The notes under the pieces are model-generated. The model had not been told where the DNA came from, did not search any database, and worked only from the letters and a program-made list of their open reading frames with translations. The translations under genes and the position numbers were made by a program. From a virus (Duplodnaviria; Caudoviricetes): 64,000 nt of DNA. This document shows positions 41,859-59,981 of this stretch, in pieces (within the stretch, counting starts at the first letter, position 1; the number at the start of each line of letters is the position of its first letter). Where the stretch lies: IMG/VR virus record IMGVR_UViG_3300035134_000062, positions 335 through 64,334 of that record. One strand, given 5' to 3'.

Positions 41859-42095
41859 ATGATGTTGCTGAGCGTAGATCCAGATAGCGGAGTAGAGACT
41901 GTGACACTATCGGACGCGGATGTCACGCAGATCGTCTCCCGTGGGGGTGTGGTCGTGCGGATATCTATCATGACGTGTGACGGTACTTGGAAGGGAGAGG
42001 CGTATGACCGTGACACGGGGCGCGCCGGGGCGTTGCTTGATAGAGTGTACAATTTGTGGTGCTGCAGCCGCCGTGGGCGATCTGTACCCAGGTGA
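41859..42095 (+). CDS. Hypothetical protein
   Basis: AAGGAG upstream; its 3' end runs into the 98-bp repeat. Confidence 0.5.
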   Translation: MMLLSVDPDSGVETVTLSDADVTQIVSRGGVVVRISIMTCDGTWKGEAYDRDTGRAGALLDRVYNLWCCSRRGRSVPR

Positions 42096-42183
42096 GTGAC
42101 CAACCCAGGCCCGCGGTGCCCACCGACAGGCCGTAGATGACCAGCCAAGATGGCACGCAGTCTGCAAGGTAAGAAGGCATGAC
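42086..42183 (+). promoter_or_regulatory. 98-bp repeat copy 1 containing a sigma54-type -24/-12 motif (class II)
   Basis: Colinear with 51925-52022. TGGCACGCAGTCTGCA at 42151-42166 (GG-N10-GC); ACCCAGG direct repeats and a CGGTG-CC-CACCG palindrome lie upstream. Confidence 0.7.
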
Positions 42184-42540: not shown

Positions 42541-42552
42541 GCGCGGAGTGTA

Positions 42553-42654
42553 GTGACATCCCTGTCGCGGTCCGCAAAAAGGTGCGAGATTTCAGGTGTG
42601 TTTTGGATGTAAGTACTTGATTTCGTGTGCGCGATATCTGGCATGGAGAGTGCA
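42553..42654 (+). promoter_or_regulatory. sigma54-type promoter A (class I): upstream palindromes, IHF site and -24/-12
   Basis: GTGACA-N4-TGTCGC 42553-68; CCGCA-N6-TGCGA 42572-87; IHF consensus AATCAAGTACTTA (minus strand, 42610-22); TGGCATGGAGAGTGCA 42639-54. Confidence 0.75.
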
Positions 42655-42695
42655 TTAGGTATTAGCGTGCTTAGCCTAGAGAGGGAGACAGAGAC

Positions 42696-43667
42696 ATGAG
42701 CACAAAGAAACGCACCGATCCTCACCGCAAAGGTGCAATCATCCCCGCCGAGTACACCCACGTCCTGAGCTACAACGGCGGGACTACTAAGGATGGGTGG
42801 CCCGTACCGGCATTTGGGATCAACTGCACGTTCGACCGCCGAGTTGGGTACGATAAGGACGACCACCCTGTATCTCAGTGGGATCGTACCGCCGTACGTC
42901 ATGTAGACGGCCAGCATGATGCGGATGGTCAGTGTTGCGTCGTAGGGCTTATGCAGGTCGCCAAGGCGAAATTCGCGAGCCACGGGACCACCGGAAAGTG
43001 CACGGCTTGCGGGGCACAGTTTGTCTACGGCGAGGTATGGCGGCATGAGCCGACCGGCGAGCATATCCACGTAGGACATATCTGCGGCACCAAGTATGGC
43101 CTCCTTGCAGATCGTAGTGCTTTCGAGCTCGAAGCAGGGCGCAGAGCTCAGGCCGCCGCGATCGCCGCTCAAAAAGCCGTCAACGCTGAGAAGCGCAAAG
43201 CTTTCTTGGAGGCCCATGAAGGACTTGAAAAAGCGTTGGAGACACCCCACCGCATTGTGGGGGACATCAAGCGGCGGTTTGAGAAGTTCTGCACCCTGAG
43301 CGACAAGCAAATCGCTCTCGTGTACAAGCTTGCGGCCGAAGAAACAGCCCCCAAGGTGTGCGATCACTGCCACGGCGACCATGAGTTGGATGACTGCCCT
43401 GAGAGAACGCCACTTACAGATGGTCGCCAAGAGCTTTGTGGGCGTATCCTATCTGTTCAAGCGCGGGAGGAATTTTTTGGAACGTCGCTCAAAATGCTGG
43501 TGCTCTTGACCACAGGTGCGAAGGTATGGGGCACCCTGCCGCAAAGTCTCTGTAGCGTAGATGGTATTCTCCGGGGGAAGACAGTTCAATTTACGGCGCA
43601 GGTGACGGCTAAAGATCAATTTTTTGGCTTCTTCTCACGTCCAACCAGGGCGTCGGTTGTGCAGTAG
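42696..43667 (+). CDS. Early hypothetical protein with a probable C-terminal OB-fold
   Basis: CTACG, GHICG, LSDKQIAL, then a beta-rich C-terminus (G.ILSV...FG.SLKMLV....G.KVWGTLP...F.A.V...D..FGFF.RPT.A). Confidence 0.75.
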   Translation: MSTKKRTDPHRKGAIIPAEYTHVLSYNGGTTKDGWPVPAFGINCTFDRRVGYDKDDHPVSQWDRTAVRHVDGQHDADGQCCVVGLMQVAKAKFASHGTTGKCTACGAQFVYGEVWRHEPTGEHIHVGHICGTKYGLLADRSAFELEAGRRAQAAAIAAQKAVNAEKRKAFLEAHEGLEKALETPHRIVGDIKRRFEKFCTLSDKQIALVYKLAAEETAPKVCDHCHGDHELDDCPERTPLTDGRQELCGRILSVQAREEFFGTSLKMLVLLTTGAKVWGTLPQSLCSVDGILRGKTVQFTAQVTAKDQFFGFFSRPTRASVVQ

Positions 43668-43735
43668 CACGGAGGGCGCCCCTGGGACATCCCGGGGGCG
43701 TTGCTCGGCACTATTGCCGGAGGGAGAGAGACATG
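43661..43735 (+). promoter_or_regulatory. Double-hairpin stop-to-start leader, copy 1
   Basis: Near-identical to 51199-51269. A GC stem with G-U pairs, then CGGCA-CTAT-TGCCG, then the AGGGAGA RBS. Confidence 0.7.
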
Positions 43736-43921
43736 AAGATCTATCATATATACAACAACATCAGCGGTAAATACGTCGGCGGCTACCCGGCCGACACTGA
43801 GGATGCAGCCGCCGACGCCATGGTCCGTGAGGCCGGCTATGCAGATTTCGTAGAGTTCTGCGATATGCTAGGGGTGTCGGTCGATGATGCCAAGATTGAC
43901 CTGTTGCATATCTTTCTCTGA
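43733..43921 (+). CDS. Small acidic protein homologous to the N-terminus of 50429-51205
   Basis: Y.I.N..SG...G.Y.AD..E.A..AM.R.AGY.DF.E.CD..G.S. Confidence 0.8.
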   Translation: MKIYHIYNNISGKYVGGYPADTEDAAADAMVREAGYADFVEFCDMLGVSVDDAKIDLLHIFL

Positions 43922-43935
43922 GGGGAGACACAGCC

Positions 43936-44229
43936 ATGAGATCAGCGAAAGAAATCATCGAGCGCTTTGGCGAACTGACCACCACCGACCGCCGCTGCAT
44001 TGATGCCGGCTTCGCTGCAGGTAATTACTCCAACGGGTGCGAGACGGAAGACTACACCGAGACAGAGAAGCAAAGGGACGGCCGGAACGGCTTCTGGCGC
44101 ATGGGATTCTTGCTGGGATTCTTCTCTAGCTATGAACTCCATGAAGTGCCACCCGAGTACCGAGAGCAAGTGGGCACGTACAGGGAAGTGCTCGCGCTTC
44201 TCGAAGATGAAGGGGAGACACAGTCATGA
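43936..44229 (+). CDS. Hypothetical protein
   Basis: GGGGAGAC RBS motif. Confidence 0.75.
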   Translation: MRSAKEIIERFGELTTTDRRCIDAGFAAGNYSNGCETEDYTETEKQRDGRNGFWRMGFLLGFFSSYELHEVPPEYREQVGTYREVLALLEDEGETQS

Positions 44230-44483
44230 GCAACCACGCCACAATCGAGACTTATGAGCAGTATTGGGCCATGGTTTTTGGCCCGCATCGAGACCCTGCG
44301 GATGTCGTCGCCGACGATGACTGCCTATGCACTCCTGACGACATCAGGCATTTCGTGCTCGACGCAGAGCGGGAGGCCTTCGCCCAAGGAGCACAATGCA
44401 CATTCACCAAGCTCGTGAAGTTCCGAATCATAGCCGCTGAAGACTTGCACGCCGCCATGCTGGACGACGACAAGCCATTCTGA
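44226..44483 (+). CDS. Acidic hypothetical protein ('IETYEQYW' family)
   Basis: Paralog of 44500 and of the middle of 50429. Confidence 0.8.
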   Translation: MSNHATIETYEQYWAMVFGPHRDPADVVADDDCLCTPDDIRHFVLDAEREAFAQGAQCTFTKLVKFRIIAAEDLHAAMLDDDKPF

Positions 44484-44499
44484 GGAGGGAGACACAGTC

Positions 44500-44754
44500 A
44501 TGAGTATTTATCCCAGAATCGAGACTTACGAGCAGTATTGGGCCATTCTTTTCGGCAAAGACGAACCGGATGATGTCGTCTTCTCTGAGGATAGCCTACG
44601 GGGCATCGAAGACATCGAGCCTTTCTTGATTCGCACTGAACAGTATCGGCTCGCCGCGACAGCGGTTCCTTCCTCCGAGAAGCTTCGAGCCTTTCGAGCG
44701 GAAGCGGCGGAGGAACTCGAAGTCAGCATGCTGTGCGACGATATGGCATTCTGA
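44500..44754 (+). CDS. Acidic hypothetical protein ('IETYEQYW' family)
   Basis: Paralog of 44226. Confidence 0.8.
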   Translation: MSIYPRIETYEQYWAILFGKDEPDDVVFSEDSLRGIEDIEPFLIRTEQYRLAATAVPSSEKLRAFRAEAAEELEVSMLCDDMAF

Positions 44755-44768
44755 GGAGGGAGAGAGAC

Positions 44769-45176
44769 ATGACAAAGAAGACTGTCCACTACGCCGTGGC
44801 CTATGATACCTACGGAGTCCGCATGTGTCGCTATGCAGGGAAGACCCTGAAAGATACGCTGCTAAAGCTGGTCGATGATCAAGTAGTGGCTGACGAAACT
44901 TGTTCGATTGATATTTCTGTCGATCACGTTGCGGACGAACCGCTAACCACCGCCGAACAGCTCTATGCTGTCCTGGCCCGTGATGCCGCACCAAGTTTCG
45001 TAGCCCGCCTTTGTCAAGGACTCTTTGGGGAGTTGGCAGAAGAAGAAGTCATTTCGGATACTGGATGTGTTACATTTCAATGTTACATATTCCCGGACGG
45101 GAGCCGCCTTTGTATCAGCCACGACATTAATACGTGGTGGGTAAGCGAGGGTGGTGAGAAGGACGAGGAGAATTGA
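44769..45176 (+). CDS. Hypothetical protein
   Basis: GAGGAGGGAGAGAGAC RBS motif. Confidence 0.75.
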   Translation: MTKKTVHYAVAYDTYGVRMCRYAGKTLKDTLLKLVDDQVVADETCSIDISVDHVADEPLTTAEQLYAVLARDAAPSFVARLCQGLFGELAEEEVISDTGCVTFQCYIFPDGSRLCISHDINTWWVSEGGEKDEEN

Positions 45177-45382
45177 TGAATACAAAAAAGCGACTTCGTT
45201 TTCTGTCGGCGGTAGCAGAACAAAGGGTTGATGACATCCTAGCGATGGCAGATGAAGAGATTCTCAAGGAGGTAGAAGAATCCGGCAATGCCGAGAAAAT
45301 GGCAAGTCATCTGCGAGCAAAAGCGGCGGCCCTTGTTGCCCAAATCCGTAGGGAGAGACGAGATAAGGACGAGGAGGGATGA
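45176..45382 (+). CDS. Hypothetical protein
   Basis: GAGGAG upstream; coupled to the previous gene. Confidence 0.6.
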   Translation: MNTKKRLRFLSAVAEQRVDDILAMADEEILKEVEESGNAEKMASHLRAKAAALVAQIRRERRDKDEEG

Positions 45383-45385
45383 ACC

Positions 45386-45640
45386 ATGCCACGCGAACTG
45401 AGGAACTTTGGGCTACACTTGGCAGTGGACGGCAAAGCACGGTCCCTGCAGACCGGTCCGAATGGCAAGGATGGAGGTTTCACACTGCACTTTCTCATCA
45501 GAGAAGGTGAAAACGTCTCAGAGAAGCGCTTGTGCATTAAAGCATTTGTCTTCTCTGATGGCACTCTCGAAATCCGCGCAGACAGCGATGAGCCAGAACT
45601 TAGAGACAAGAGCATCACGCTCCTTCGAGGGTGGAGGTAG
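45386..45640 (+). CDS. Hypothetical protein (paralog pair)
   Basis: MPR...NF.L.L.VDGKARSL.TGP.GKDGGF. Confidence 0.8.
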   Translation: MPRELRNFGLHLAVDGKARSLQTGPNGKDGGFTLHFLIREGENVSEKRLCIKAFVFSDGTLEIRADSDEPELRDKSITLLRGWR

Positions 45641-45646
45641 GACGCC

Positions 45647-45901
45647 ATGCCACGCGCAGTGCCAAATTTTTGGCTCGACCTGACAGTGGACGGCAAAGCA
45701 CGGTCCTTGCGGACCGGACCGAAAGGCAAGGACGGGGGCTTTCAGCTTGCGTTCTTCATAAGAGAGGAGGGATCCGTTTCTCTGAAGAAGCTGACCATCG
45801 ACGGAGTCGTGCGCTTCGACGGCACTCTCGAAATCCAAGCCTGCAGCGATGAACCATGGCTTGAAGGCAAAGTCATGACGCTACTCAGCGGTAGGAGGTA
45901 G
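45647..45901 (+). CDS. Hypothetical protein (paralog pair)
   Basis: Tandem duplicate of 45386. Confidence 0.8.
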   Translation: MPRAVPNFWLDLTVDGKARSLRTGPKGKDGGFQLAFFIREEGSVSLKKLTIDGVVRFDGTLEIQACSDEPWLEGKVMTLLSGRR

Positions 45902-45907
45902 GGCACC

Positions 45908-46198
45908 ATGATAACCGCGTACGTTGGCGACCTCGCGTACCTCTTCTCATCCACCGTAGTCCTGGTGCCTGTGAAGACTCTAGACTGGCATTTTGTTGCC
46001 GGTAAGAATGCCGCACAAGACGGCAAAGTCCATAAAAATAGCGTAATGGAGGTCAGAGTCACCGCCACACGTGGCTCATACCGCCGGGGAGAGACTCTGC
46101 ATGTCCCACTCACCTCCGTGGCACCACGAAGGGCAGTGAAAAGCAAAGAGGGCAAGCTCATCGCGATTCGGCCCTACGAGTGGAAGGAGAGAACGTGA
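45908..46198 (+). CDS. Hypothetical protein (paralog pair)
   Basis: MITAYVGDLAYL...ATRG.YRRGE...PYEWKER. Confidence 0.8.
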   Translation: MITAYVGDLAYLFSSTVVLVPVKTLDWHFVAGKNAAQDGKVHKNSVMEVRVTATRGSYRRGETLHVPLTSVAPRRAVKSKEGKLIAIRPYEWKERT

Positions 46199-46476: not shown

Positions 46477-46691
46477 TCCGTTTCCTACTCATCATTACTG
46501 GGTTTACGCTCATCGGGTTAGCAATACGTCAAATGGTGCTGGCGCCTGATGGCGATGAGTGTGTTTTGACCAGAAATCGAATGGGGTTGTCGGGTCAAAT
46601 AGTCATCATCAGGGACCATGATCAGCTCCATTGTTTGCACACGATCACGGATGATTCGATCATTTACGTGTGCCCAAGGACGGAACCATGA
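46473..46691 (+). CDS. Small membrane-anchored protein
   Basis: MIRFLLIITGFTLIGLAI N-terminal TM segment. Confidence 0.6.
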   Translation: MIRFLLIITGFTLIGLAIRQMVLAPDGDECVLTRNRMGLSGQIVIIRDHDQLHCLHTITDDSIIYVCPRTEP

Positions 46692-47134
46692 ACATCACAG
46701 TTGATCAGATCATGAAGTGGAACCCATGTGGACGCTGGCCTCGTGAGCGCATCGAGAAAATGATGGGGGGCGCGCCGGTGTCGTTGGAGAGAATCCTGGT
46801 GGCCCCCGACATACCACGTTCTGACCGCATTTGGGTAGCATGTTACGTGTTCCCCGAAACTATCCAAGTTTGGATAAACCGAGCTGATACTTATGCCACC
46901 GAAGCCGAGGAATCCACTGAACTTACACAGGACTACAAAGAGGCGGCCGAAAATGCGGCCATCGACGCCGCCGAGTGCGCTGACAACTTTAGTTGGTTCC
47001 CTGGAGCGCGAGCCTACGCTGCCCACCTCTACGCTTTGGACGCCGCCCGCTACGTGAGGGGCTGGAAAGGTTGGGGGAAAGAACTCGAAGCACAACTTGC
47101 GATCCTGATTCAGCTCGCCAAGGAGAGAAAATAG
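46688..47134 (+). CDS. Ala-rich 'MNITVDQIM.W.PC' family protein
   Basis: Paralog of 53852 and 54433. Confidence 0.8.
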   Translation: MNITVDQIMKWNPCGRWPRERIEKMMGGAPVSLERILVAPDIPRSDRIWVACYVFPETIQVWINRADTYATEAEESTELTQDYKEAAENAAIDAAECADNFSWFPGARAYAAHLYALDAARYVRGWKGWGKELEAQLAILIQLAKERK

Positions 47135-49245: not shown

Positions 49246-49989
49246 ATGAGCACCACAACATCGACCGCCTGCGGCACTTGTGCACACTGTATGGGTCCAG
49301 CTCAAAGCTGCATCCTAATCCCAGCTGAAGAAGCCGAATGCCATGCGTCTGATCCGCACAACAGAAAGCATTGGAAGCAATGGGAACCAAAGGCCGTCAC
49401 ATTAGCATCAACGCCGGGCAGGACTTGCGGTGCTTGCCACTACTTCGAGGACAGCACTTCTGGCCTCATCATATGCACATTGTACTGCACTCCGGCCGAG
49501 GCCCATGTCGCTGCTTGCTCCAACTGGAGAGCTCCGCGCACCGGTGCCGTACAGATGAGTTGTGGCAATTGCGCCAGGCAGCGCAAAGATGGGAGTTGCG
49601 GCATTGGAGCCGACAAGGTGAGCGAGTGCATCATCTACAGCCGCCGCAAGCATTGGATACCTAAAACCACAAGCTCAGAGTCCGCGCCCCCGCCGAGCAC
49701 GGCCGCTCCGCAACCGGACCCTTGCGCTCCGACGCCCATCGAAGGTCATCACGCCAGAATCAAAGTGGACGTAGGGGACCATATCGTCGACCCGAGTGTG
49801 CTTCAGCAAATTGCGGAGCGCGCGGAGGCTCAGCTCCGCCGAGACATTTTCTTCTGCGAGACATGCCCATTCTGCCCCACGTGCGGCAAGAATCGCCGCC
49901 TGAATTTCCGGAGAAGTCCGGAGTATGTCTCCAAACATGCCGAGTTCTATCGCATCACAGCCGAGTGGGTCTGCGATCATGAAGTGTAG
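49246..49989 (+). CDS. Multi-CxxC protein with a C-terminal domain shared with 28381-29097
   Basis: Three CxxC..C modules (two ending ..RKHW.PK), then PD.CAP...PFC..CGK.R.L.F....YR..A..VC. Confidence 0.75.
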   Translation: MSTTTSTACGTCAHCMGPAQSCILIPAEEAECHASDPHNRKHWKQWEPKAVTLASTPGRTCGACHYFEDSTSGLIICTLYCTPAEAHVAACSNWRAPRTGAVQMSCGNCARQRKDGSCGIGADKVSECIIYSRRKHWIPKTTSSESAPPPSTAAPQPDPCAPTPIEGHHARIKVDVGDHIVDPSVLQQIAERAEAQLRRDIFFCETCPFCPTCGKNRRLNFRRSPEYVSKHAEFYRITAEWVCDHEV

Positions 49990-50090
49990 TGACAACCGTG
50001 TCACGGTCCGCAAAAATGTGCGGATTCTTGAAGGTGGTATGAGCGTAAGTAGTTGTTTTTACGTGCTCAATATTTGGCACGTGGAGTGCA
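49989..50090 (+). promoter_or_regulatory. sigma54-type promoter B (class I)
   Basis: GTGACA-ACCG-TGTCAC 49989-50004; CCGCA-N6-TGCGG 50008-23; IHF-like AAACAACTACTTA (minus strand, 50046-58); TGGCACGTGGAGTGCA 50075-90. Spacings are identical to promoter A. Confidence 0.75.
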
Positions 50091-50135
50091 TTAAGGATCA
50101 ATGTGTCTGTCAGACACAAGAGGGAGAGAGACATC

Positions 50136-50351
50136 ATGGGTCATGGCGGTAGACGTCCCGGTTCTGGCCGGCCGAGCCTTGGGGTTGGGTACACCCGCAT
50201 TACGGCTTTGTTGAGTGATAAGCAGATCGCTGCTATCCACACCTGGCGTGACACATACCAGTGCAAGACGGTATCTGAGGCCCTACGGCAGATCTTGGAT
50301 GCCTTGAGGGATACGCTGGATTCCCCGGCGCAAAAAAAGCCGCCTGAGTGA
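50136..50351 (+). CDS. Small DNA-binding protein (GGRRPGSGRP motif plus a ribbon-helix-helix-like region)
   Basis: GGRRPGSGRP, RITALLSDKQIAAI.......TVSEALRQIL. Confidence 0.7.
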   Translation: MGHGGRRPGSGRPSLGVGYTRITALLSDKQIAAIHTWRDTYQCKTVSEALRQILDALRDTLDSPAQKKPPE

Positions 50352-50360
50352 TTTTTTTTG

Positions 50361-50389
50361 TTGACGAGTCCAGTTGATTACCGTATACT
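50361..50389 (+). promoter_or_regulatory. Strong sigma70-type promoter
   Basis: TTGACG-N17-TATACT with a T/A tract directly upstream, 40 nt before the 50429 start. Confidence 0.8.
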
Positions 50390-50428
50390 GTATTCATGAT
50401 CGAGGCAACGTCAACGAGGGAGAGAGAC

Positions 50429-51205
50429 ATGACAACTTATCGAATCAGCAATCGCACCAGTGGAGCGGACCTTGGCACCTACAATGCGGATTCGCCAGAA
50501 GAAGCGCTCAACGCCATGGCCCGGGATGCGGGTTATGACGACTTCACAGAAAATTGCGATGTCGTGGGGTTGTCAATCGGCGAAGCTACGAGAGACTTGG
50601 TCATCGTGGAACTCGACGAGACCCCGACAGCCGCAGAAGCCGACACCCACGCACGGATCGACAGTTACAGCGCGTATTGGGATATGGTGGTTGGCCCATA
50701 CCGCGACCCAGAGGGCGTCATCGATGAAGTCGGCGAGGGGTGCTACGCCAGCGTCAGGGACTGGCTAATCGCTGCAGAGACCCAGTGTCTGGACCAAGGC
50801 GCGACCTGCAGCGGGGATGATTTGGCCGCTTACCGCGAAAAGGCGGCTCAAGAGATCAATGTTGCAACGGGTCAGGTACGCGAGGATCCTCCCCGCGCCC
50901 GCTTGATCCTGGACAACGGCGGCGGGGCTACCCTACAGCTCGGCTCCTGGGGCGGCGACTTTGACGCCAGGACGGCCTCGGCGTGCGCGCAGTCTATCGC
51001 AGCATGGCTTCGCGACCAGACCACCGAAGGGTGGGAGGGAACGGAATCCGCCGCGGTGCTCAAACCGACGGAAGAGCAGATCCGGAATGGCGGGTACACG
51101 GTAGTCGAGCTCGATGATCTCGCATCGCTCGATGGTGAGTACGGTGGCGAGGCCGAGGCCGAGATCCGCGCGGCCCTGATCCGCTTTGGTGTGCTCGCGC
51201 AGTAG
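50429..51205 (+). CDS. Three-domain acidic early protein
   Basis: Domain 1 resembles 43733, domain 2 resembles 44226/44500, and domain 3 is unique here; AGGGAGAGAGAC RBS. Confidence 0.8.
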   Translation: MTTYRISNRTSGADLGTYNADSPEEALNAMARDAGYDDFTENCDVVGLSIGEATRDLVIVELDETPTAAEADTHARIDSYSAYWDMVVGPYRDPEGVIDEVGEGCYASVRDWLIAAETQCLDQGATCSGDDLAAYREKAAQEINVATGQVREDPPRARLILDNGGGATLQLGSWGGDFDARTASACAQSIAAWLRDQTTEGWEGTESAAVLKPTEEQIRNGGYTVVELDDLASLDGEYGGEAEAEIRAALIRFGVLAQ

Positions 51206-51269
51206 CACGGAGGGCGCCCCTGGGAGACCGGGGGCGTCGCTCGGCACTATTGCCGGAGAGGGAGACATG
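51199..51269 (+). promoter_or_regulatory. Double-hairpin stop-to-start leader, copy 2
   Basis: Same stems as 43661-43735; the apical loop is GAGA (GNRA). Confidence 0.7.
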
Positions 51270-51938
51270 AAGCTTTACAAGCTGACAGACGCTGACAGCT
51301 ACACTCGGCGTGGGCAACCCGAGGCCGTGGCGTGGATCCCTGGCGCACCACCGCCGAAACTCGACGGGACAGAGCTCTGCAGCGCAGGCGTTTACCACGC
51401 CTACCGCACTCCAGAGATCGCAGTATTTATGGATTCTATCCACGCCGCCTATCTACCCGGTGGCCTCCTGTGGGAAGCTGATGGCGACGTTGTGGCGGAC
51501 GACGGTACAAAGGTTGGTTGTCAGTCCCTGACCGTGCACCGCGTCATCACGCCACCCGTGCTCCCTCTAGCGGTGCGGGTGCGGGTGGCGATTTATGCAG
51601 TGCAGCGGGTGATGCCCACTTCCCAGTGCCAGTCCTGGCATGAATGGGCGCACTCGTGGCTGTCGGGTACAGATCGATCAGCGAAGGCGGCGGATGCAGC
51701 GGCGCGGGCAACGGCGCGGGCGGTGTGGTTGGCGGCGGATGCAGAGGCGCGGGCGGCGGCGCGAGCGACATGGTTGGCGGCGGAGGCGGATGCGGAGGCG
51801 GATGCGGAGGCGTGGTCGGCGGAGGCGGTGGAGCGTGCGACGTATTCCACCGGAGCCGCCTTTACTCTGCAGGCGTACATCGAAAGAGCTATACAGGACG
51901 AAGAGCGGCTTGGGGGTAATCCCCACCCAGGTGAGTGA
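51267..51938 (+). CDS. Hypothetical protein with a C-terminal Ala-rich 15-aa repeat
   Basis: LYKLTD..., W..DG....DGTKVGC..LT....I, then W.EWA.SWLSG.DRS..AA and AADAAARATARAVWL/AADAEARAAARATWL repeats. Confidence 0.8.
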   Translation: MKLYKLTDADSYTRRGQPEAVAWIPGAPPPKLDGTELCSAGVYHAYRTPEIAVFMDSIHAAYLPGGLLWEADGDVVADDGTKVGCQSLTVHRVITPPVLPLAVRVRVAIYAVQRVMPTSQCQSWHEWAHSWLSGTDRSAKAADAAARATARAVWLAADAEARAAARATWLAAEADAEADAEAWSAEAVERATYSTGAAFTLQAYIERAIQDEERLGGNPHPGE

Positions 51939-52022
51939 CCAACCCAGGCTAGCGGTGCCCACCGAGGCAGCAGAGACGGCCAGCGGAGATGGCACGACGG
52001 GTGCAAGGTAAGAAGGCATGAC
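51925..52022 (+). promoter_or_regulatory. 98-bp repeat copy 2 containing a sigma54-type -24/-12 motif (class II)
   Basis: TGGCACGACGGGTGCA at 51990-52005; colinear with 42086-42183. Confidence 0.7.
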
Positions 52023-52038
52023 ACGGAGGGACGACACG

Positions 52039-52158
52039 ATGACACTCAGCCTCAAAGACAAGATCGCCATTGCCAACGTCAAAGCGGACGCCCACGACGC
52101 CGCCAAGACTTTCGCCGCCGCCACCCGCGAGCTCCGCGCCGCGCTACAAGCCAAGTAG
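52039..52158 (+). CDS. 39-aa helical micro-protein
   Basis: MTLSLKDKIAIANVKADAHDAAKTFAAATRELRAALQAK; GGAGGG RBS just downstream of the predicted sigma54 start site. Confidence 0.55.
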   Translation: MTLSLKDKIAIANVKADAHDAAKTFAAATRELRAALQAK

Positions 52159-52168
52159 GGAGCCTGAA

Positions 52169-52357
52169 ATGAACGCTTACGCCGTAAGAGCCATTGACGC
52201 CGCCGGGACCGAGACTTTACTGCGCACCGCAGCCCACAGCGCCGACATCGCCGTGACCAAAGCCGCCGTCCTGCTGGGGACCGGCTATCTGGTAACCCAT
52301 GTCGCGCTGGTCGGCGCCTCCTGCTGGACCGAGATCGACGGCGGCATCGCCGCCTGA
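52169..52357 (+). CDS. Hypothetical protein
   Basis: MNAYAVRAIDAAG...; GGGAG upstream. Confidence 0.55.
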   Translation: MNAYAVRAIDAAGTETLLRTAAHSADIAVTKAAVLLGTGYLVTHVALVGASCWTEIDGGIAA

Positions 52358-52380
52358 AACACACACAAGAGAGGGAAGCC

Positions 52381-52620
52381 ATGTCAGATCCATTATACGC
52401 AGTCTTTTCGTGCGACCAGAATGGTTCCGTAGTATCACTGGCCCGGTTCCGGAGTGCAGATGATGCGGTGGAGCGCGCCAAGAAAATTTGTGCGGACTGT
52501 CCGACTCATTCGGTTGTGATCATCGTCCAGGGAGAGGATGCCGGCCAAGGTGGGTACCTGGTACCGCCGGATGGTGATTGGTCCGCCGATGCGGTGGTGT
52601 GGAGGGGTGAGCAGCGCTGA
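52381..52620 (+). CDS. Hypothetical protein
   Basis: GAGAGGGAAG upstream. Confidence 0.65.
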   Translation: MSDPLYAVFSCDQNGSVVSLARFRSADDAVERAKKICADCPTHSVVIIVQGEDAGQGGYLVPPDGDWSADAVVWRGEQR

Positions 52621-52630
52621 ATTTTTGCTA

Positions 52631-52734
52631 TGAGAGCAGGGTCGCCGAGGCCGCCATTGCAGGCCTACCCCCGCCCCGCGGATGGCAGGCTACACTGTGG
52701 TCTCCCTGCTGCAGTGTAGGCGGCCCTGCTCTCA
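52631..52734 (+). ncRNA. Candidate structured RNA 1 (multibranch) displaying GUCUCCCU in an apical loop
   Basis: Intergenic. 16-bp closing stem 52631-46/52719-34 with one G-U pair; hairpin CTACACTG/CAGTGTAG with the loop containing TGGTCTCCCT. Confidence 0.65.
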
Positions 52735-52755
52735 CCTTCGCAAGAGGAGGGTATT

Positions 52756-53067
52756 ATGTTCTCGATGATCGATTTTCTACGACGCAAGCGGAGCGAAGTG
52801 GATTTGAATCTCAAAAGAATTACATTCCATGGCGATGGAGATTTAGCTTATCGTGTCGAGCTACGCAAAGATGGTGGTCCGGATTGCTGTGTGTACTCCA
52901 CGCAGAATGTAGACCTGGCGGAGCGGTGGGCGAGGAGAGAAGTTTGCAGCGCACGCAGAGCTTTTGATTCTGCGGAAGTCTTTGTGACTTGGACTGACTT
53001 AGTCACTGGTGAGAATGGGTACCTGAACACCACCACCGTACACGAAAGCACAGGAAAGGCGTGGTAA
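52756..53067 (+). CDS. Hypothetical protein
   Basis: GAGGAGGG RBS. Confidence 0.65.
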   Translation: MFSMIDFLRRKRSEVDLNLKRITFHGDGDLAYRVELRKDGGPDCCVYSTQNVDLAERWARREVCSARRAFDSAEVFVTWTDLVTGENGYLNTTTVHESTGKAW

Positions 53068-53288
53068 ATCTCTTGAAGCTGAAAGCATACCGAGGACGCG
53101 CCATGCTCAGCTTGCGAAAGAGCTTTACTGATCTGCGTAATCCTCTGAAAGGAAGTTACGGCGTAGACGCAGCATATTGGTGCCTGCAGGGAAAAATCGT
53201 GATGGCTGCTCTAAATCTCTTGATCTCAGATGAGGAGGTAGGTAACTTGGTGGTGCGTGCTACTTATCTGTACAATCGCAGAAGGTAG
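53061..53288 (+). CDS. Hypothetical protein
   Basis: GGAAAGG upstream; overlaps the previous stop. Confidence 0.5.
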   Translation: MVNLLKLKAYRGRAMLSLRKSFTDLRNPLKGSYGVDAAYWCLQGKIVMAALNLLISDEEVGNLVVRATYLYNRRR

Positions 53289-53298
53289 CTTGAGGGAG

Positions 53299-53383
53299 CT
53301 GTAGACTTGAGGGTTCGGGTCCTGTGTGCGGCGTAGCTTGGTCTCCCTCCCAAGCCTGCCCGCAGGGCCCTGCCCACCTACAG
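53299..53383 (+). ncRNA. Candidate structured RNA 2 (long hairpin) displaying UCUCCCUC in an apical loop
   Basis: Intergenic. Nested stems CTGTAG/CTACAG, GGGTCCTGTG/CGCAGGGCCC (two G-U pairs) and GCTTGG/CCAAGC closing the loop TCTCCCTC (53342-49). Confidence 0.65.
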
Positions 53384-53396
53384 AGGGGTTTACGTC

Positions 53397-53855
53397 ATGC
53401 GATTCGCCGCCATACTGTTGCTCACTTCTTGTGGACCGCCGTCGATCATCATCCACAACCCGACGTCGCACCCGGTGCACGAGCCTAGCATCCACTGGCT
53501 TGCCGATGAGCTCTGGCCCAAGGGCCTAGAATTCGATCTTGAAATTTGGTTCACCGCTGCTCGGTGGGGGTTTTCGTGCCCCGAAGGAACAGTACCTGAT
53601 TGGACAAAATGGGATGAGTCTTGGTGCCGCAATCAGGATGGCCTTGCTGAGCTTCCCGGGGGCAAGATGTTGATTCGTCTACATGAGGAGGAGGAAGATC
53701 CTGCGTGCCTGGGCCACACCGGCCTTGTGCACGAGATGATCCACGCCAAGACTGGTGTAGAGAGATACTGGCACGAAGGCGGTGAATGGCTGCGACAAGC
53801 CAAGCTCGAAGAAAAGCTTTATGAGCGGGATCCAAATTGTGGAGGAGAATCATGA
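53397..53855 (+). CDS. Putative lipoprotein with an HExxH zincin motif (paralog of 35772-36293)
   Basis: MRFAAILLLTS-C lipobox; GLVHEMIH. Confidence 0.7.
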   Translation: MRFAAILLLTSCGPPSIIIHNPTSHPVHEPSIHWLADELWPKGLEFDLEIWFTAARWGFSCPEGTVPDWTKWDESWCRNQDGLAELPGGKMLIRLHEEEEDPACLGHTGLVHEMIHAKTGVERYWHEGGEWLRQAKLEEKLYERDPNCGGES

Positions 53856-54436
53856 ACATCACAGTAGATCAGATCATGGAGTGGAAGCCCTGCAAGGATT
53901 GGCCACGTGTACGCATTGAGAAGCTTTTCGGTGGGCGGGGGTCAATCCCATTGGTTGAGATCTTAGAGTGTATGGGGCTTTTTGAATTTGATCGTATTTG
54001 GGTTGGTTGTCATGCGCTACCAGAGACCCGTTGGACTTGGGTTGATCGCGCTCGCCTCTACGCTGCCGATGCTATGGAGGATGTAGGGCTTCAGTGGGCG
54101 GCTGAAGCTTTGAGATCTTTGCCGCAGGTAGTTGATGAGACGACCGCTCGTGATGTCGTGGCTATTGCTGATCATGCGGCTATTGCGGCTTTTTCTGTTG
54201 GGGTTTTTTGTGCAGTCGATGCCACTAAAGCTGCAAAAGTTGCTGCATACACAGCATATGCAGCTTGTGATGGACGTACTGTGGACGCTGCATTTGATGC
54301 CGCCAATGTCTGTGCCGCCTGTACGGCTTGTGCTGTTGATGCCTGTAATGCTGCCTACGAAAAGGCTTATGATGAAGAGATTCAGCAACAGCTCGACATC
54401 TTGATCGCATTGGCGAAGGAGAAGGAAGAATCATGA
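53852..54436 (+). CDS. Ala-rich 'MNITVDQIM.W.PC' family protein
   Basis: DRIWVGCHALPETRW.WVDRAR...ALRSLPQ...YDEEIQ.QLDILI. Confidence 0.8.
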   Translation: MNITVDQIMEWKPCKDWPRVRIEKLFGGRGSIPLVEILECMGLFEFDRIWVGCHALPETRWTWVDRARLYAADAMEDVGLQWAAEALRSLPQVVDETTARDVVAIADHAAIAAFSVGVFCAVDATKAAKVAAYTAYAACDGRTVDAAFDAANVCAACTACAVDACNAAYEKAYDEEIQQQLDILIALAKEKEES

Positions 54437-55002
54437 ACATCACAGTAGATCAGATCATGGAGTGGAATCCATGCGGAGAATGGCTTCGCAAGCATATTGA
54501 AGAAATTTTCAAAGGCAGTAAGTCAGTGTCTTTGGTAGATTTTCTACAGTGTACAGACATCTCTTCGCCTGATCGTATTTGGGTGGGGTGCCACGCGCTA
54601 CCAGAAACCCGATGGATTTGGGTCGACCGTGCTCGCTTTCATGCCGCGGAAGCTATGGAGGTTTTAGGTCTATCAAAGCACGCCGAAGCTTTGAGAAGTC
54701 TGCCGCAGGCGGTTGACGAAAAGACTGCCTGCGCCGTTCGTAGTGCTGCGCGTGCTGCTGATAATGATGCCGTTTCTGATGTTGTCGTCGATGCTGATTT
54801 TACATATACAGGAACTGCGTACGCTGCGTATGCTGCTGTTCGCGCCGCTGATTTCGCTATTGATGATGCCGCTGGCGTTGCCGCAATTTATGTTGCTGAT
54901 GCCGCCGCTGCATGCAGTGAAGATGTCTACGATGAAGAGATTCAGCGACAGCTCGACATCTTGATTACCAAGGCCAAAGAAAGAGAGGGTTCAAATGAGT
55001 AA
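54433..55002 (+). CDS. Ala-rich 'MNITVDQIM.W.PC' family protein
   Basis: Tandem duplicate of 53852. Confidence 0.8.
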   Translation: MNITVDQIMEWNPCGEWLRKHIEEIFKGSKSVSLVDFLQCTDISSPDRIWVGCHALPETRWIWVDRARFHAAEAMEVLGLSKHAEALRSLPQAVDEKTACAVRSAARAADNDAVSDVVVDADFTYTGTAYAAYAAVRAADFAIDDAAGVAAIYVADAAAACSEDVYDEEIQRQLDILITKAKEREGSNE

Positions 55003-55303
55003 GAAAGATTTTGTAGAACATGCCGCTATTTCGATCACGGCTGCGTACGTCGCGAGCACCAGGCCTATCGTAACACGTAATGCTTTAGCAGAATGGAGTA
55101 TAGATGTAGCCCGCGAACTTTGGATGCAGCTTGATCGTGGCGACGTTTCACAGGAAGGATCCGTTCCTACAGTTGTTGGGTCTTGTACGTACTGTAAACA
55201 CGTTGGGTCTCTTTCAAGCTGTGAACCATGTATATCGTGTTACATGAAAGCCCCAAGCAATTGGGAGCATCACTTAACCGACGAAGATGACGAGAGCGAA
55301 TGA
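54995..55303 (+). CDS. Hypothetical protein, 'CxxCKH-PCxxC-PSxWE' family (distant copy)
   Basis: MSKKDFVEHAA...ELW...SCTYCKH...PCISC...PSNWE. Confidence 0.75.
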   Translation: MSKKDFVEHAAISITAAYVASTRPIVTRNALAEWSIDVARELWMQLDRGDVSQEGSVPTVVGSCTYCKHVGSLSSCEPCISCYMKAPSNWEHHLTDEDDESE

Positions 55304-55314
55304 GACCACTCTAA

Positions 55315-55818
55315 TCACTGCAATACACCACGCAGTTGCCACCCTGCCACAAAGCTAAGGCCTACTATTGCGGTGGCTCCAACGATAATGATTGGCACTT
55401 CCAACGCTTGCCACAGACGATCGAGCCATCCGGATTCATGCGCCACACTACCCTTCAGCCACCTTGCTCTTTCCTTCGCTGCAGCTAGATTTGCGGCGTG
55501 CTCGATCTCGATCAATGTTATCCGCTTTAGCTGGTCGAGTTGCGTTTGAAAGACCCATGGTAGCTTGTCGCAAGCGCGGCTTTGTTTCCGAAGCTCTAGG
55601 TTGAGCTCCATAGGTAAGAAGACTCCCGGACCCCATGGCTCTGCATCTTCGTTGGGATACCATTGGCCCTCCGCTGGAGCTATTTGTGGGGGTGGTAGAT
55701 TTGAAGGGAGCGGGGAAACTGCTGGCGCGGTCCACAAGTCGTCTGTGTCTCTGACTATTTCAAGATCTGTGTCGGCGATTTGAACGAGCCCAGTCAGCAA
55801 CATCACTAGGACTTCCAT
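55315..55818 (-). CDS. Lysis-cassette protein with a C-terminal TM segment (possible spanin-like function)
   Basis: Last gene of the late operon; overlaps the upstream TM gene; C-terminal IIIVGATAIVGLSFVAGW; no lipobox seen. Confidence 0.5.
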   Translation of the reverse strand: MEVLVMLLTGLVQIADTDLEIVRDTDDLWTAPAVSPLPSNLPPPQIAPAEGQWYPNEDAEPWGPGVFLPMELNLELRKQSRACDKLPWVFQTQLDQLKRITLIEIEHAANLAAAKERARWLKGSVAHESGWLDRLWQALEVPIIIVGATAIVGLSFVAGWQLRGVLQ

Positions 55819-57558: not shown

Positions 57559-58679
57559 TGCAGCACCACGTATCTCCAAGTGTAGCCAGACCCGCAGACC
57601 CACAATAGGTCGTCGTCATCTTCATCCGCTTCGACTTTGGTTTTGCCGATGTCGGCCTGCACCGCACAATCGTCATCTGGCGGCTGGCGGTACGTCCGGC
57701 CAAATTTGATGTAACCGTCACTCACTGTTAGATTGCCGGTCTCGATCAGAACGTTACCGTCTTGTACGTGGAGCAACTCGTGCGCGCCGCCGGGGTCTGG
57801 CGCACTCGAAAGGATCATTCTGGTCCCACCGCCTACGCGCACGAATTCTTTACTGACGCGCAGATGGATGGTGCCGGCGCCTGAGTCGAGGTAGGCCACG
57901 TAATCTTTTGCGGTACCCTCATAATCGACTCTGTAAATGGCTCCGGAATCGCCCGGTACATCCACAACATGTACGGAGTAGACGTTGCCTGTATTACCGG
58001 CAAAAACATCAAAGCACGTGTTGTCGCTCGCACACCGCCATTCAGCAAGTTCTCCCCCGGGAAAGACCACAGCGGTTGGGTTGCGGCGATGTCCAGATTC
58101 ATCGTGAATTAGACAATCAACTGGCTCACCATCAGCATCGAAGCACCCAGTCGCATCGTTCTGAAACGTCATGCCTATCCCGTGGCCTCGGTGCTGCACC
58201 CATACACTTCGGCCCAGTTCCACCTCTGGCGTCGTTGCGATCGCAAGTGTCGTCTCAACTCCTGAGCGGCGTTGGACCTGCAACACCGTACCGTCGCCGG
58301 CGTGCTTGCCCACGAGCATCGTTGTACCGGACCCCTCGCCCTTATCTTTAAAGACATATGCCGTCTCAGCGTCTACAACCGTCTCGGCAAACCGCTCTGC
58401 GTAAAGCACCCGTGCCGATGCGTCGGTCCCGTATCCCGACGCAAACGTGGCTCGTGCCATGTGAGAGTTATGACCAAACTTCACTGCCCGATCAAAAGCC
58501 GCAGTCCCCCCAACGTGAAGATCAGCGTCCATGGACGTGCGGCCAACGCCGATCCTGCCATCGCTCTCATAGAGTACCTCGCTGTCGACGCAATAGCACT
58601 CCGCCTCACAGTCCCCTACCTGGATGTAGCCTTCCGTGACCACTGCTGTGCACTGCAACAGCACCGCAAACAAGACCAT
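57555..58679 (-). CDS. Tail fibre/spike-like beta-rich protein
   Basis: DGRIGVG, LHVGG, LLHVQDGNVLI.TGNL.V.DG.IK beta-helix-like motifs. Start reassigned to the ATG after AGGAG. Confidence 0.6.
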   Translation of the reverse strand: MVLFAVLLQCTAVVTEGYIQVGDCEAECYCVDSEVLYESDGRIGVGRTSMDADLHVGGTAAFDRAVKFGHNSHMARATFASGYGTDASARVLYAERFAETVVDAETAYVFKDKGEGSGTTMLVGKHAGDGTVLQVQRRSGVETTLAIATTPEVELGRSVWVQHRGHGIGMTFQNDATGCFDADGEPVDCLIHDESGHRRNPTAVVFPGGELAEWRCASDNTCFDVFAGNTGNVYSVHVVDVPGDSGAIYRVDYEGTAKDYVAYLDSGAGTIHLRVSKEFVRVGGGTRMILSSAPDPGGAHELLHVQDGNVLIETGNLTVSDGYIKFGRTYRQPPDDDCAVQADIGKTKVEADEDDDDLLWVCGSGYTWRYVVLQ

Positions 58680-58689
58680 AGCAGCACTC

Positions 58690-59493
58690 CTAATAGAAAG
58701 GACACGCCGTGCCGACAACATCGCCCATGTCTCGCCAGTCATAGCCCGTCCCGTCCAAATTTGCGCATTGACAATTGCGACCATATGCAGTGTCGTCCGT
58801 GTCGTCTACATACTGCCATGCGCCTTCAATTGACGCGTCGCATGTCGCCGGTTCTGTTGGAGAGGCGTTGATTTGCCGCGGAGGAATGAGCGTATCAGCG
58901 CTCGATACATCCAACGAACCGCTGCCGACAGTCAGAACTGCGTTTGTTTGGTTGTGGGACATGCAGGCGTGGTTCGTGTTGTCCGAGTCCGGGTCTACCG
59001 TCGCAAACGCACAGAAAATCGGATCGGTGGGCACTGCTACATCAAAATCTTTCGACCGGTACGCCGCTGGCACTAGCAATAGTTGGTTGCCGGAATCGGC
59101 ATGCGACGAAACCACTGCCTGGTCATACGTCGGATTTGTGCCAAGTCTAAACCCAGTAGACCCACCACCGCCACTCGCGCTCAAGAACAGGTCATTATGA
59201 TAGAGCTGCAGGTCATGGTACACACGGGTGAGGCCAAGGTCGATACCTGCATAATTCGAATCGTCCCCCAGTTTCATCTGCACCTGCGTCCCAGTGGCGT
59301 ACACCATTGCATACGACGCTGTTCTCGGCCCAAAATGCAGCGAGTCGCCTGCGTTCAACACAATTTCATAGCCGTTCATTTCAATGTCGGCCACAGCAGA
59401 ACCACCCATCTGACACATACTATCTATGTAGAAATCAGGCGGGTAGATAGGCGGTGCTGTCAATAACACGAAAGTCAGAATACTCGTGATCAT
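58690..59493 (-). CDS. Tail fibre-like protein
   Basis: Beta-rich; C-terminal P.TCDAS.EG...YVDD...CQC..DG..Y.W, echoed in the C-terminus of 57555. Confidence 0.55.
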   Translation of the reverse strand: MITSILTFVLLTAPPIYPPDFYIDSMCQMGGSAVADIEMNGYEIVLNAGDSLHFGPRTASYAMVYATGTQVQMKLGDDSNYAGIDLGLTRVYHDLQLYHNDLFLSASGGGGSTGFRLGTNPTYDQAVVSSHADSGNQLLLVPAAYRSKDFDVAVPTDPIFCAFATVDPDSDNTNHACMSHNQTNAVLTVGSGSLDVSSADTLIPPRQINASPTEPATCDASIEGAWQYVDDTDDTAYGRNCQCANLDGTGYDWRDMGDVVGTACPFY

Positions 59494-59504
59494 TATGCTG
59501 TCTC

Positions 59505-59981
59505 CTAGTCCGTAAGGTATGCGTTTTCTGTGACTATGTCACTGGCGGAAGGTGTTCCGCTATGGGTGGTGGTGCAAGACCATGCACGGTACCCACGAAT
59601 ACCAAACCGGAAAGTCCACTTCTTATCCCCCGTCACTGCTTTCTGCGCAATGCCAGCGTCATCCAAAATACACACTCCGTCAGTGACGGAGCCGCACACT
59701 TGAGGCACCTTATCGGCGGTAGAAACACTTTGCCCAGTAGTGCATGTCAGGACTACGTTGCCGTTATTGTCATGGGTGTAATCCATCTCCACTACGAGGT
59801 ATCCATATGAAGATGTAGATCTACCACAAGCACGTGGACCGAATTTGAAATTTACTGTGCCGTTGAGTGGCTTTGCCTTGGCGACAACCCCCGCCACTCC
59901 AAGGTTACAAAATTTCGCATCATCTTGCGCCCATGCAGCCGAACCAAACAACAAACAACCTACGAAAACAAAACTTCTCAT
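59505..59981 (-). CDS. Protein with a predicted Sec signal peptide in the tail region
   Basis: MRSFVFVGCLLFGSAAWA-QDD; AGGAG RBS. Confidence 0.6.
   Translation of the reverse strand: MRSFVFVGCLLFGSAAWAQDDAKFCNLGVAGVVAKAKPLNGTVNFKFGPRACGRSTSSYGYLVVEMDYTHDNNGNVVLTCTTGQSVSTADKVPQVCGSVTDGVCILDDAGIAQKAVTGDKKWTFRFGIRGYRAWSCTTTHSGTPSASDIVTENAYLTD

Follow-up and report, generated by a model that had tools for sequence, protein, structure and literature searches.

The window analysed here, a stretch of 64,000 nt (positions 335 to 64,334 of IMG/VR record IMGVR_UViG_3300035134_000062, assigned to the Caudoviricetes), is nearly the whole of the 64.3-kb contig of an uncultured wetland phage. Two intergenic regions of its + strand encode strongly folded RNA elements, here called S1 (52631-52734) and S2 (53299-53383), which expose the same short sequence in an apical loop. 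The loop reads as the exact Watson-Crick complement, over 8-9 nt, of GAGGGAGA(C), the beginning of a tag that precedes the start codon of nine genes located upstream on the same strand. The structures and their complementarity are genuine and cannot be put down to chance. The leading single interpretation, to which we assign a probability of about 0.4, is that the loops act in trans as anti-tags on the ribosome-binding sites of the nine genes. A multi-target interpretation of this kind had been proposed in a first-pass annotation of this DNA, made from its letters alone, and is partly supported by the present analysis.

Two intergenic RNA elements with a common apical loop

Refolding of the two regions confirmed the coordinates and the architectures given in the first-pass annotation. 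S1 is a three-way junction composed of a 16-bp closing stem, a helix 2 and a hairpin 3, and S2 is a long nested hairpin. Their folding energies are -65.2 kcal/mol (z -5.7) and -44.2 kcal/mol (z -4.2), respectively, values equalled by none of 200 shuffled sequences in either case, and S1 is the second most structured 100-nt window genome-wide. The involvement of G-U pairs was also confirmed: the + strand folds better than the - strand in both elements (-65.2 versus -60.9 kcal/mol for S1, -44.2 versus -37.1 kcal/mol for S2), and since the G.U wobble pairs favour the + strand by 4 and 7 kcal/mol, S1 and S2 are elements of the coding-strand RNA.

The 10-mer TGGTCTCCCT is present exactly twice in the 64 kb, even when both strands are searched and one mismatch is allowed, at 52698-52707 in S1 and at 53339-53348 in S2. 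It had been described as lying at the apical loops of both structures. The sharing holds and the loop bases are predicted to be unpaired with a probability of 0.87-1.0 in a 400-nt context, at an opening cost of zero, but the loop proper covers only 6 nt in S1 (CUCCCU, 52702-52707) and 8 nt in S2 (UCUCCCUC, 53342-53349), the leading UGG(U) forming the top of the stem. The shorter string TCTCCCT has three copies on the + strand, for about 3.7 expected, and two of the three lie in apical loops of intergenic folds.

The common anatomy of S1 and S2 goes beyond the 10-mer, and this is the part that is new with respect to the earlier annotation. The distance from the start of the 10-mer to the following ATG is 58 nt in S1 (ATG 52756) as in S2 (ATG 53397). 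A second block, GCCCTGC, follows 15 nt past the 10-mer in S1 (52723-52729, in the 3' strand of the closing stem) and 18 nt past it in S2 (53367-53373), and both folds contain a GGGUC/GGCCC helix segment with an identical U.G wobble. The stems had been said to share no obvious sequence; this applies to the remaining sequence between the 10-mer and the ATG, which is about 25% identical, i.e. at the level of random sequences, but not to the wobble helix and GCCCTGC. Because the 10-mer is identical while its flanks have diverged to this extent, the loop sequence itself looks to be what was kept, and conservation of a loop sequence rather than of a fold alone favours sequence-specific recognition. 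From this pattern we read S1 and S2 as two old, diverged copies of one element whose apex was retained. Both folds end 13-21 nt 5' of the start codon, beside the Shine-Dalgarno (SD) site.

Other features of the two elements were considered. S2 is preceded by a degenerate tag, GAGGGAG, followed after 8 nt by a TTG (53307) that opens a 9-codon mini-ORF (open reading frame); the mini-ORF runs along the 5' arm of S2 and ends with a TAG at 53334-53336 (whole feature 53292-53336, + strand). The proposal that this GAGGGAG (53292-53298) pairs in cis with the loop of S2 had to be abandoned, the loop being out of reach in folded S2 and the alternative fold about 12 kcal/mol worse. For the second loop of S1, CUACCCCC, a complement was sought and none was found anywhere in the window. 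A 29-codon ORF within S1 (ATG 52630 to TAG 52719) has no ribosome site and was taken as a chance occurrence.

A start tag at nine genes

The tag has the consensus GAGGGAGA(G/C)A(G/C)AG(A/T)C-ATG, is 13-16 nt long, and heads nine genes, all ORFans and all on the + strand between 42.7 and 51.3 kb. It is found as GAGGGAGACAGAGAC at 42681-42695 (before ATG 42696), as GAGGGAGAGAGAC at 43720-43732, 44756-44768 and 50416-50428 (before ATG 43733, 44769 and 50429), as AGGGGAGACACAGCC at 43921-43935 (ATG 43936), as AGGGGAGACACAGTC at 44211-44225 (ATG 44226), as GAGGGAGACACAGTC at 44485-44499 (ATG 44500), as GAGGGAGAGAGACATC at 50120-50135 (ATG 50136) and as GAGGGAGAC at 51258-51266 (ATG 51267). All nine starts are ATG, and the tag abuts the start codon except for a 3-nt gap at 50136. 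The motif AGGGAGA, reported earlier for all nine starts, is exact at seven and replaced by GGGGAGA at 43936 and 44226, and the tag is longer than had been stated. All seven copies of GAGGGAGA in the window are placed 9-16 nt 5' of an ATG.

Genes 43936, 44226 and 44500 are paralogous, and the leaders of 43733 and 51267, as well as those of 42696 and 50136, are duplicated together with upstream hairpins or promoters. To judge from these repeats, the sharing of the tag is in part due to duplication. Three unrelated phage contigs encode homologues of the 42696 protein behind ordinary GGAGG/AGGAG sites and with no tag, indicating that the tag is a property of this phage rather than of the gene. The product of this gene (42696-43667) is a member of a widespread phage family of unknown function, with 186 homologues of up to 57% identity in unrelated phage contigs. 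A duplicated GC-rich double-hairpin module, present between genes at 43631-43730 and again at 51181-51280 (+ strand), directly adjoins the tags of 43733 and 51267; by degree of structure, its two copies take the 7th and 9th places among the 100-nt windows. The genes 52039 (GGAGGGACGACACG-ATG), 52169 (AGGGAGCC..ATG) and 52381 (GAGAGGGAAGCC-ATG), between the promoter candidate at 51990 described below and S1, carry the tag in decayed form.

Selectivity of the loop for the tags

The selective targeting of the phage motif suggested by the first-pass annotation is supported by the predicted energies. In plain duplex energy, the nine tags are all within the top 11 of 124 start regions. Once opening costs are taken into account, tagged genes fill the first five of 123 places for the S2 loop, a sixth tag being at rank 7, and the net energies of the top five (-11.0 to -11.9 kcal/mol) compare with a mean of -3.0 (standard deviation 3.2) over the 123 start regions. 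Among 61 intergenic hairpin loops, the only two that match many start regions are those of S1 and S2. The ribosome sites directly downstream of the two loops rank 48-97 of 123, so that masking of these sites by pairing in cis does not explain the loop and was rejected.

Two other approaches gave no such signal. RNAcofold of S1 or S2 with the leaders returned no loop pairing, a method that cannot model contacts between a loop and a strand, and a whole-genome scan of 20-22-nt duplexes did not single out the tags; selectivity is confined to the exposed loops.

Promoters, terminators and transcription

Exact sigma54-like -24/-12 elements (TGGCAYR-N5-TGCA) are present at 42151-42166, 42639-42654, 50075-50090 and 51990-52005, all on the + strand. 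The second precedes the genes 42696-44769, which form the first tagged run, and the third precedes the second run, 50136-51267; the tag occurs on the six genes closest behind 42639 and on each of the three genes that follow 50075. For the operon that holds both elements (52039-55303), the closest promoter candidate on the upstream side is the fourth (TGGCACGACGGGTGCA), S1 being located 0.6 kb and S2 1.3 kb downstream of it. The upstream regions carrying these elements are themselves duplicated (42547-42669 with 49983-50105, and 42075-42183 with 51914-52022). No sigma54 activator gene was recognised.

The small RNA of the first-pass annotation is not borne out by these data as a gene of its own. 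No sigma70-like promoter was found in 51800-55800, no sigma54-like promoter with at most one mismatch was found at S1 or S2, and no intrinsic terminator was found behind either element, with the exception of a small hairpin over the ribosome site of 52756. The sequences 3' of S1 (CCTTCGCAAG) and of S2 (AGGGGTTTAC) do not have the GC-rich stem-loop and U run of an intrinsic terminator, and neither element has the own promoter and flanking terminator by which a stand-alone small RNA (sRNA) gene is recognised. S1 and S2 are therefore best seen as intercistronic parts of an mRNA, from which a small RNA would need to be excised. Contigs of two metatranscriptome runs (X2 and X3) cover parts of 43.1-45.4 and 49.0-52.3 kb and not S1 or S2; as these data are contigs, in which DNA carry-over is possible, they say nothing either way on transcription of the two elements.

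Relatives and conservation

A blastn search of 52300-53900 against 50,697 phage records and a search of IMG/VR with the three flanking ORFans found no relative carrying S1 or S2. The 103-aa ORFan behind S1 retrieved only itself among 5.8 billion proteins, its second contig being identical DNA, and no relative among JGI metagenome contigs. Gapped patterns of S1 and S2 matched nothing in IMG/VR, nor did the S1 pattern in JGI metagenome contigs, and the relatives of the portal protein in IMG/VR are only Mu-like elements, at 33-43% identity.

A relative was seen by placing the contigs of four wetland runs on the phage. In run X5, a 435-nt contig spans 52629-53027 with nine differences; eight of these are listed, each of them inside the ORF (52777-52875) and outside S1. 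Should the ninth also be located in the ORF, which would then differ at about 3%, the chance probability of an unchanged 104-nt S1 is about 0.03 by our own arithmetic. No change is listed for this relative in the tag at 44211-44225. Upstream of 52629 the contig diverges abruptly and is unlike this phage, and the retention of S1 and gene 52756 without the upstream sequence indicates that S1 travels with its downstream gene. The same relative has 393 other bases in place of 44504-46184; the breaks at 44503-46185 and at 52629 point to mosaic joints at leader or element boundaries.

An Rfam search had been suggested in the first-pass annotation, and it gave no family match: the Rfam 15 covariance models have no match at gathering scores in the whole window, and at E up to 10 the region 52400-53600 gave five sub-threshold chance matches, the best with 16.8 bits for a threshold of 40. 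The elements do not behave as dispersed palindromic repeats (REP/MITE-like) either, the 10-mer and the two-block motif having two copies each in the genome.

Possible roles of the loops

In the mechanism that we propose, S1 and S2 would be + strand copies of an RNA element, located in the leaders of 52756 and 53397 within an operon that probably starts at 51990. Their very stable stems present the same C/U-rich sequence at the tip, and the loops would serve as anti-tags, either within the operon mRNA or as stable fragments surviving its decay. Pairing of loop and tag would mask the ribosome-binding site and reduce translation from the tagged genes, with S2 as the main effector and S1 as a weaker one. 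This reading starts from observations, namely that both elements fold, that their loops are open, that these are exactly and selectively complementary to the tag, and that the tag is confined to nine genes; that the RNAs meet, that their pairing blocks ribosomes, and any timing that may result, we infer. A wider version is more doubtful and in our view unlikely as a whole: a private translational regulon in which the loops of the third operon silence the nine tagged genes, by mRNA-mRNA or fragment pairing, while the tagged mRNAs may tune the genes 58 nt downstream of the loops, and in which a loop complementary to the start-associated sequence (SAS) of Cluster K mycobacteriophages (see below), placed in their late-operon leader, would explain that motif.

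Promoters, sigma factors and antiterminators are the usual explanations for the timing of phage genes. If the anti-tag reading is true, a private tag together with an anti-tag RNA made by the phage would provide a further, translational level of control by which the phage addresses its own gene set and leaves host mRNAs untouched, and short orthogonal tag/anti-tag pairs of this kind could serve as synthetic translational switches.

Several points weigh against a role in trans. The 6-nt loop of S1 binds weakly (net -7 to -8 kcal/mol), the tags of 44226, 44500 and 44769 are poorly accessible, and some complementarity to purine-rich ribosome sites must be expected of any C/U-rich loop. Pairing to a tag does not account for the conserved UG of the 10-mer, and the equal 58-nt distance to the next ATG is the prediction of a role in cis, not in trans. 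The 5' strand and loop of S1 hairpin 3 could form 13 bp with GGGAGACACAGU, interrupted by one bulge; after subtraction of the energy needed to open the stem, this extended duplex has a net energy of about 0 to -3 kcal/mol, and it was rejected as a target. No promoter or terminator for a discrete RNA was found, and the database searches recovered no relative with S1 or S2. Finally, in the Cluster K phages Amgine, Hammy and SirPhilip the hairpin and the SAS are kept with a different loop, the anti-SAS being lost, so that the loop is dispensable for tag function there.

Some of these points fit better with leader elements that act only in cis, by protecting the adjacent mRNA from RNases or by insulating or setting the translation of 52756 and 53397, the match to the tag being a by-product. 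The constant 58-nt spacing, the folds that stop 13-21 nt before the start codon near the SD site, the X5 relative that keeps S1 and its gene behind a different upstream sequence, and the lack of signals for an independent transcript all agree with such a role, as does the presence in the same region of other GC-rich folds that rank as highly structured (43631-43730 and 51181-51280). A stability element, however, needs no specific loop, yet the 10-mer is the one long stretch common to both copies; moreover, the loops pair poorly with the ribosome sites downstream of them, and they match the tags selectively, without a mismatch over 8-9 nt. We consider a purely cis function unlikely, though it deserves more weight than the alternatives that follow. 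The apices could also be evolutionary by-products without a role, remnants of inverted tag-bearing starts left by recombination among repeated leaders. The segment is indeed rich in duplicated leaders and promoters, a degenerate tag (GAGGGAG-N8-TTG) precedes S2, and the 5' strand and loop of S1 hairpin 3 equal the reverse complement of GGGAGACACAGU plus one extra G, a match better read as a vestige of how the element arose than as a functional duplex. This origin would not explain why the inverted tag lies exactly in an apical loop with zero opening cost in two independent copies, why the 10-mer stayed identical while its flanks drifted to random-level identity, or why no change is listed in S1 for a relative with about 3% divergence in the adjacent ORF, and we regard loops without any role as rather improbable.

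The inclusion of the stem-top UGG in the 10-mer, which is complementary to no tag, would be accounted for if UGG-UCUCCCU were an operator for an RNA-binding protein of phage or host origin, for instance a translational repressor or an antiterminator, in the manner of coat-protein or boxB-type hairpins, and controlled the two downstream genes. The common helix segment with its U.G wobble, a frequent feature of protein recognition, and the fixed distance to the start codon point in the same direction. Nevertheless, no RNA-binding protein is recognisable nearby, the neighbours being all ORFans and the only structural lead for 53397 in the Atlas being metallopeptidase-like, and the exact complementarity to the tag would be a coincidence; the operator is, by a little, the less probable of the last two explanations. 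A site acting at the DNA level is by far the least probable. The arrangement TGGTCTCCCT-N15/18-GCCCTGC has a promoter-like two-block geometry at a fixed distance from the ATG and could be a promoter or protein site, for example for the sigma factor that the phage encodes (23173-23988), driving the genes 58 nt downstream, and S1 reads TGG-N10-TGCA as a sigma54 -24/-12 element would. The motif has only two copies, never ahead of late or structural genes, its spacer differs by 3 bp between them, and the G.U pairs and strand asymmetry point to RNA; the two-block promoter was rejected. A sigma54 promoter (GG-N10-GC in a TGGCAC/TTGCW context) was likewise rejected, S1 agreeing at 7 of 12 specified positions and S2 having AA where the -12 GC is required.

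Genome context and neighbouring genes

The ends of the contig overlap, which suggests a circular assembly, and the gene map made here agrees with the stored gene calls. The - strand carries a Mu-like head and contractile-tail module, and the + strand from 19.2 to 55.3 kb encodes a primase, a PolA, a helicase, the sigma factor and many small ORFans. The divergent control region that separates these two gene blocks contains by far the most structured 100-nt stretch of the genome (18701-18800; -59.7 kcal/mol, 40% GC, z -7.8).

S1 occupies a 135-nt gap 5' of the 103-aa ORFan 52756-53067 (+ strand), which stays with it in the X5 relative, and S2 a 108-nt gap 5' of a 152-aa ORFan (53397-53855, + strand) with an HExxH motif and a lipobox-like N-terminus (LLLTSC). 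The structure neighbours of the latter in the Atlas are small zinc-peptidase, SprT-like and YbeY-like folds, to be taken as leads only (TM 0.51-0.59). Immediately behind it lies a tandem pair of ORFan paralogues (53852-54436 and 54433-55002), which together with a third copy at 46688-47134, all on the + strand, share 77-80% identity over their first 79 nt and start with MNITVDQIM.W. Tandem GGCGGCGGATGC-type repeats at 51686-51838 (+ strand), inside the tagged gene 51267-51938, should encode a Gly-rich repetitive segment.

Comparison with known systems

S1 and S2 resemble C-rich-loop anti-SD RNAs and are outside the catalogued families. Such RNAs are known from Staphylococcus aureus, as RNAIII and the Rsa RNAs with a UCCC motif (PMC2790875), and as the cuckoo/alpha-r14 RNAs with CCUCCUCCC loops (PMC4615179). 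They have in common with the phage elements variable stems, one fixed C/U-rich loop and pairing with the ribosome sites of several mRNAs, and the loop described here contains UCCC. In contrast, they are stand-alone RNAs with their own promoter and terminator and with hairpins adjacent in one RNA, whereas the S1 and S2 hairpins are 640 nt apart in one mRNA and their proposed target is a phage-private tag, not the generic SD. In place of the two to four adjacent hairpins with CCUCCUCCC loops that characterise cuckoo/alpha-r14, the phage has the loops CUCCCU and UCUCCCUC with a gene between them. A C-rich anti-SD motif within an mRNA rather than in a dedicated sRNA is known from icaR, where UCCCCUG in the 3' untranslated region pairs with the ribosome-binding site and blocks translation (PMC3868564). 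There, the two ends of the same mRNA pair, whereas here the sites of the elements' own genes pair poorly and those of other operons best.

Excision from a longer transcript has phage counterparts among antisense RNAs. The c4 RNA of P1/P7 and the CI RNA of P4 are produced in this way, and their loops pair at or near phage ribosome-binding sites. Each acts on one or two targets within its own operon, unlike the nine-gene tag considered here, and S1 and S2 gave no Rfam match to them at E up to 10 with a library that presumably includes a C4 family.

The closest parallel to the tag is the SAS of Cluster K mycobacteriophages, a 13-nt asymmetric motif whose role and partner are described as unknown (PMC3203893, PMC11373665, PMC12699233). 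The nine leaders have the properties of an SAS: their repeat is asymmetric, exceeds the SD core in length, keeps a single orientation and occurs at some of the non-structural genes only. Like the SAS, the tag contains and exceeds the SD core, lies a few bases before the ATG and is private to its phage group. The sequences differ (GGGATAGGAGCCC in Cluster K, GAGGGAGAGAGAC here), and host phylum and phage type are unrelated, so that the likeness is one of kind and not of homology. In Anaya (JF704106), 15 SAS sites are in forward orientation and one is reverse, and the reverse one forms the 10-nt apical loop CCUCCUAUCC of a hairpin at 59845-59905 of the record (RNAfold). This anti-SAS hairpin is kept in 11 representatives from 133 matching records, with changes that are mostly one-sided and one compensatory pair. 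In Adephagia it lies, at about 58657-58718, in the gap between genes 92 and 93, in which late transcription starts according to RNA-seq (PMC11373665). Cluster K thus has a single anti-SAS loop where the present phage has two anti-tag loops inside an operon, and if the anti-tag reading is true, this loop would be a concrete candidate for the partner of the SAS.

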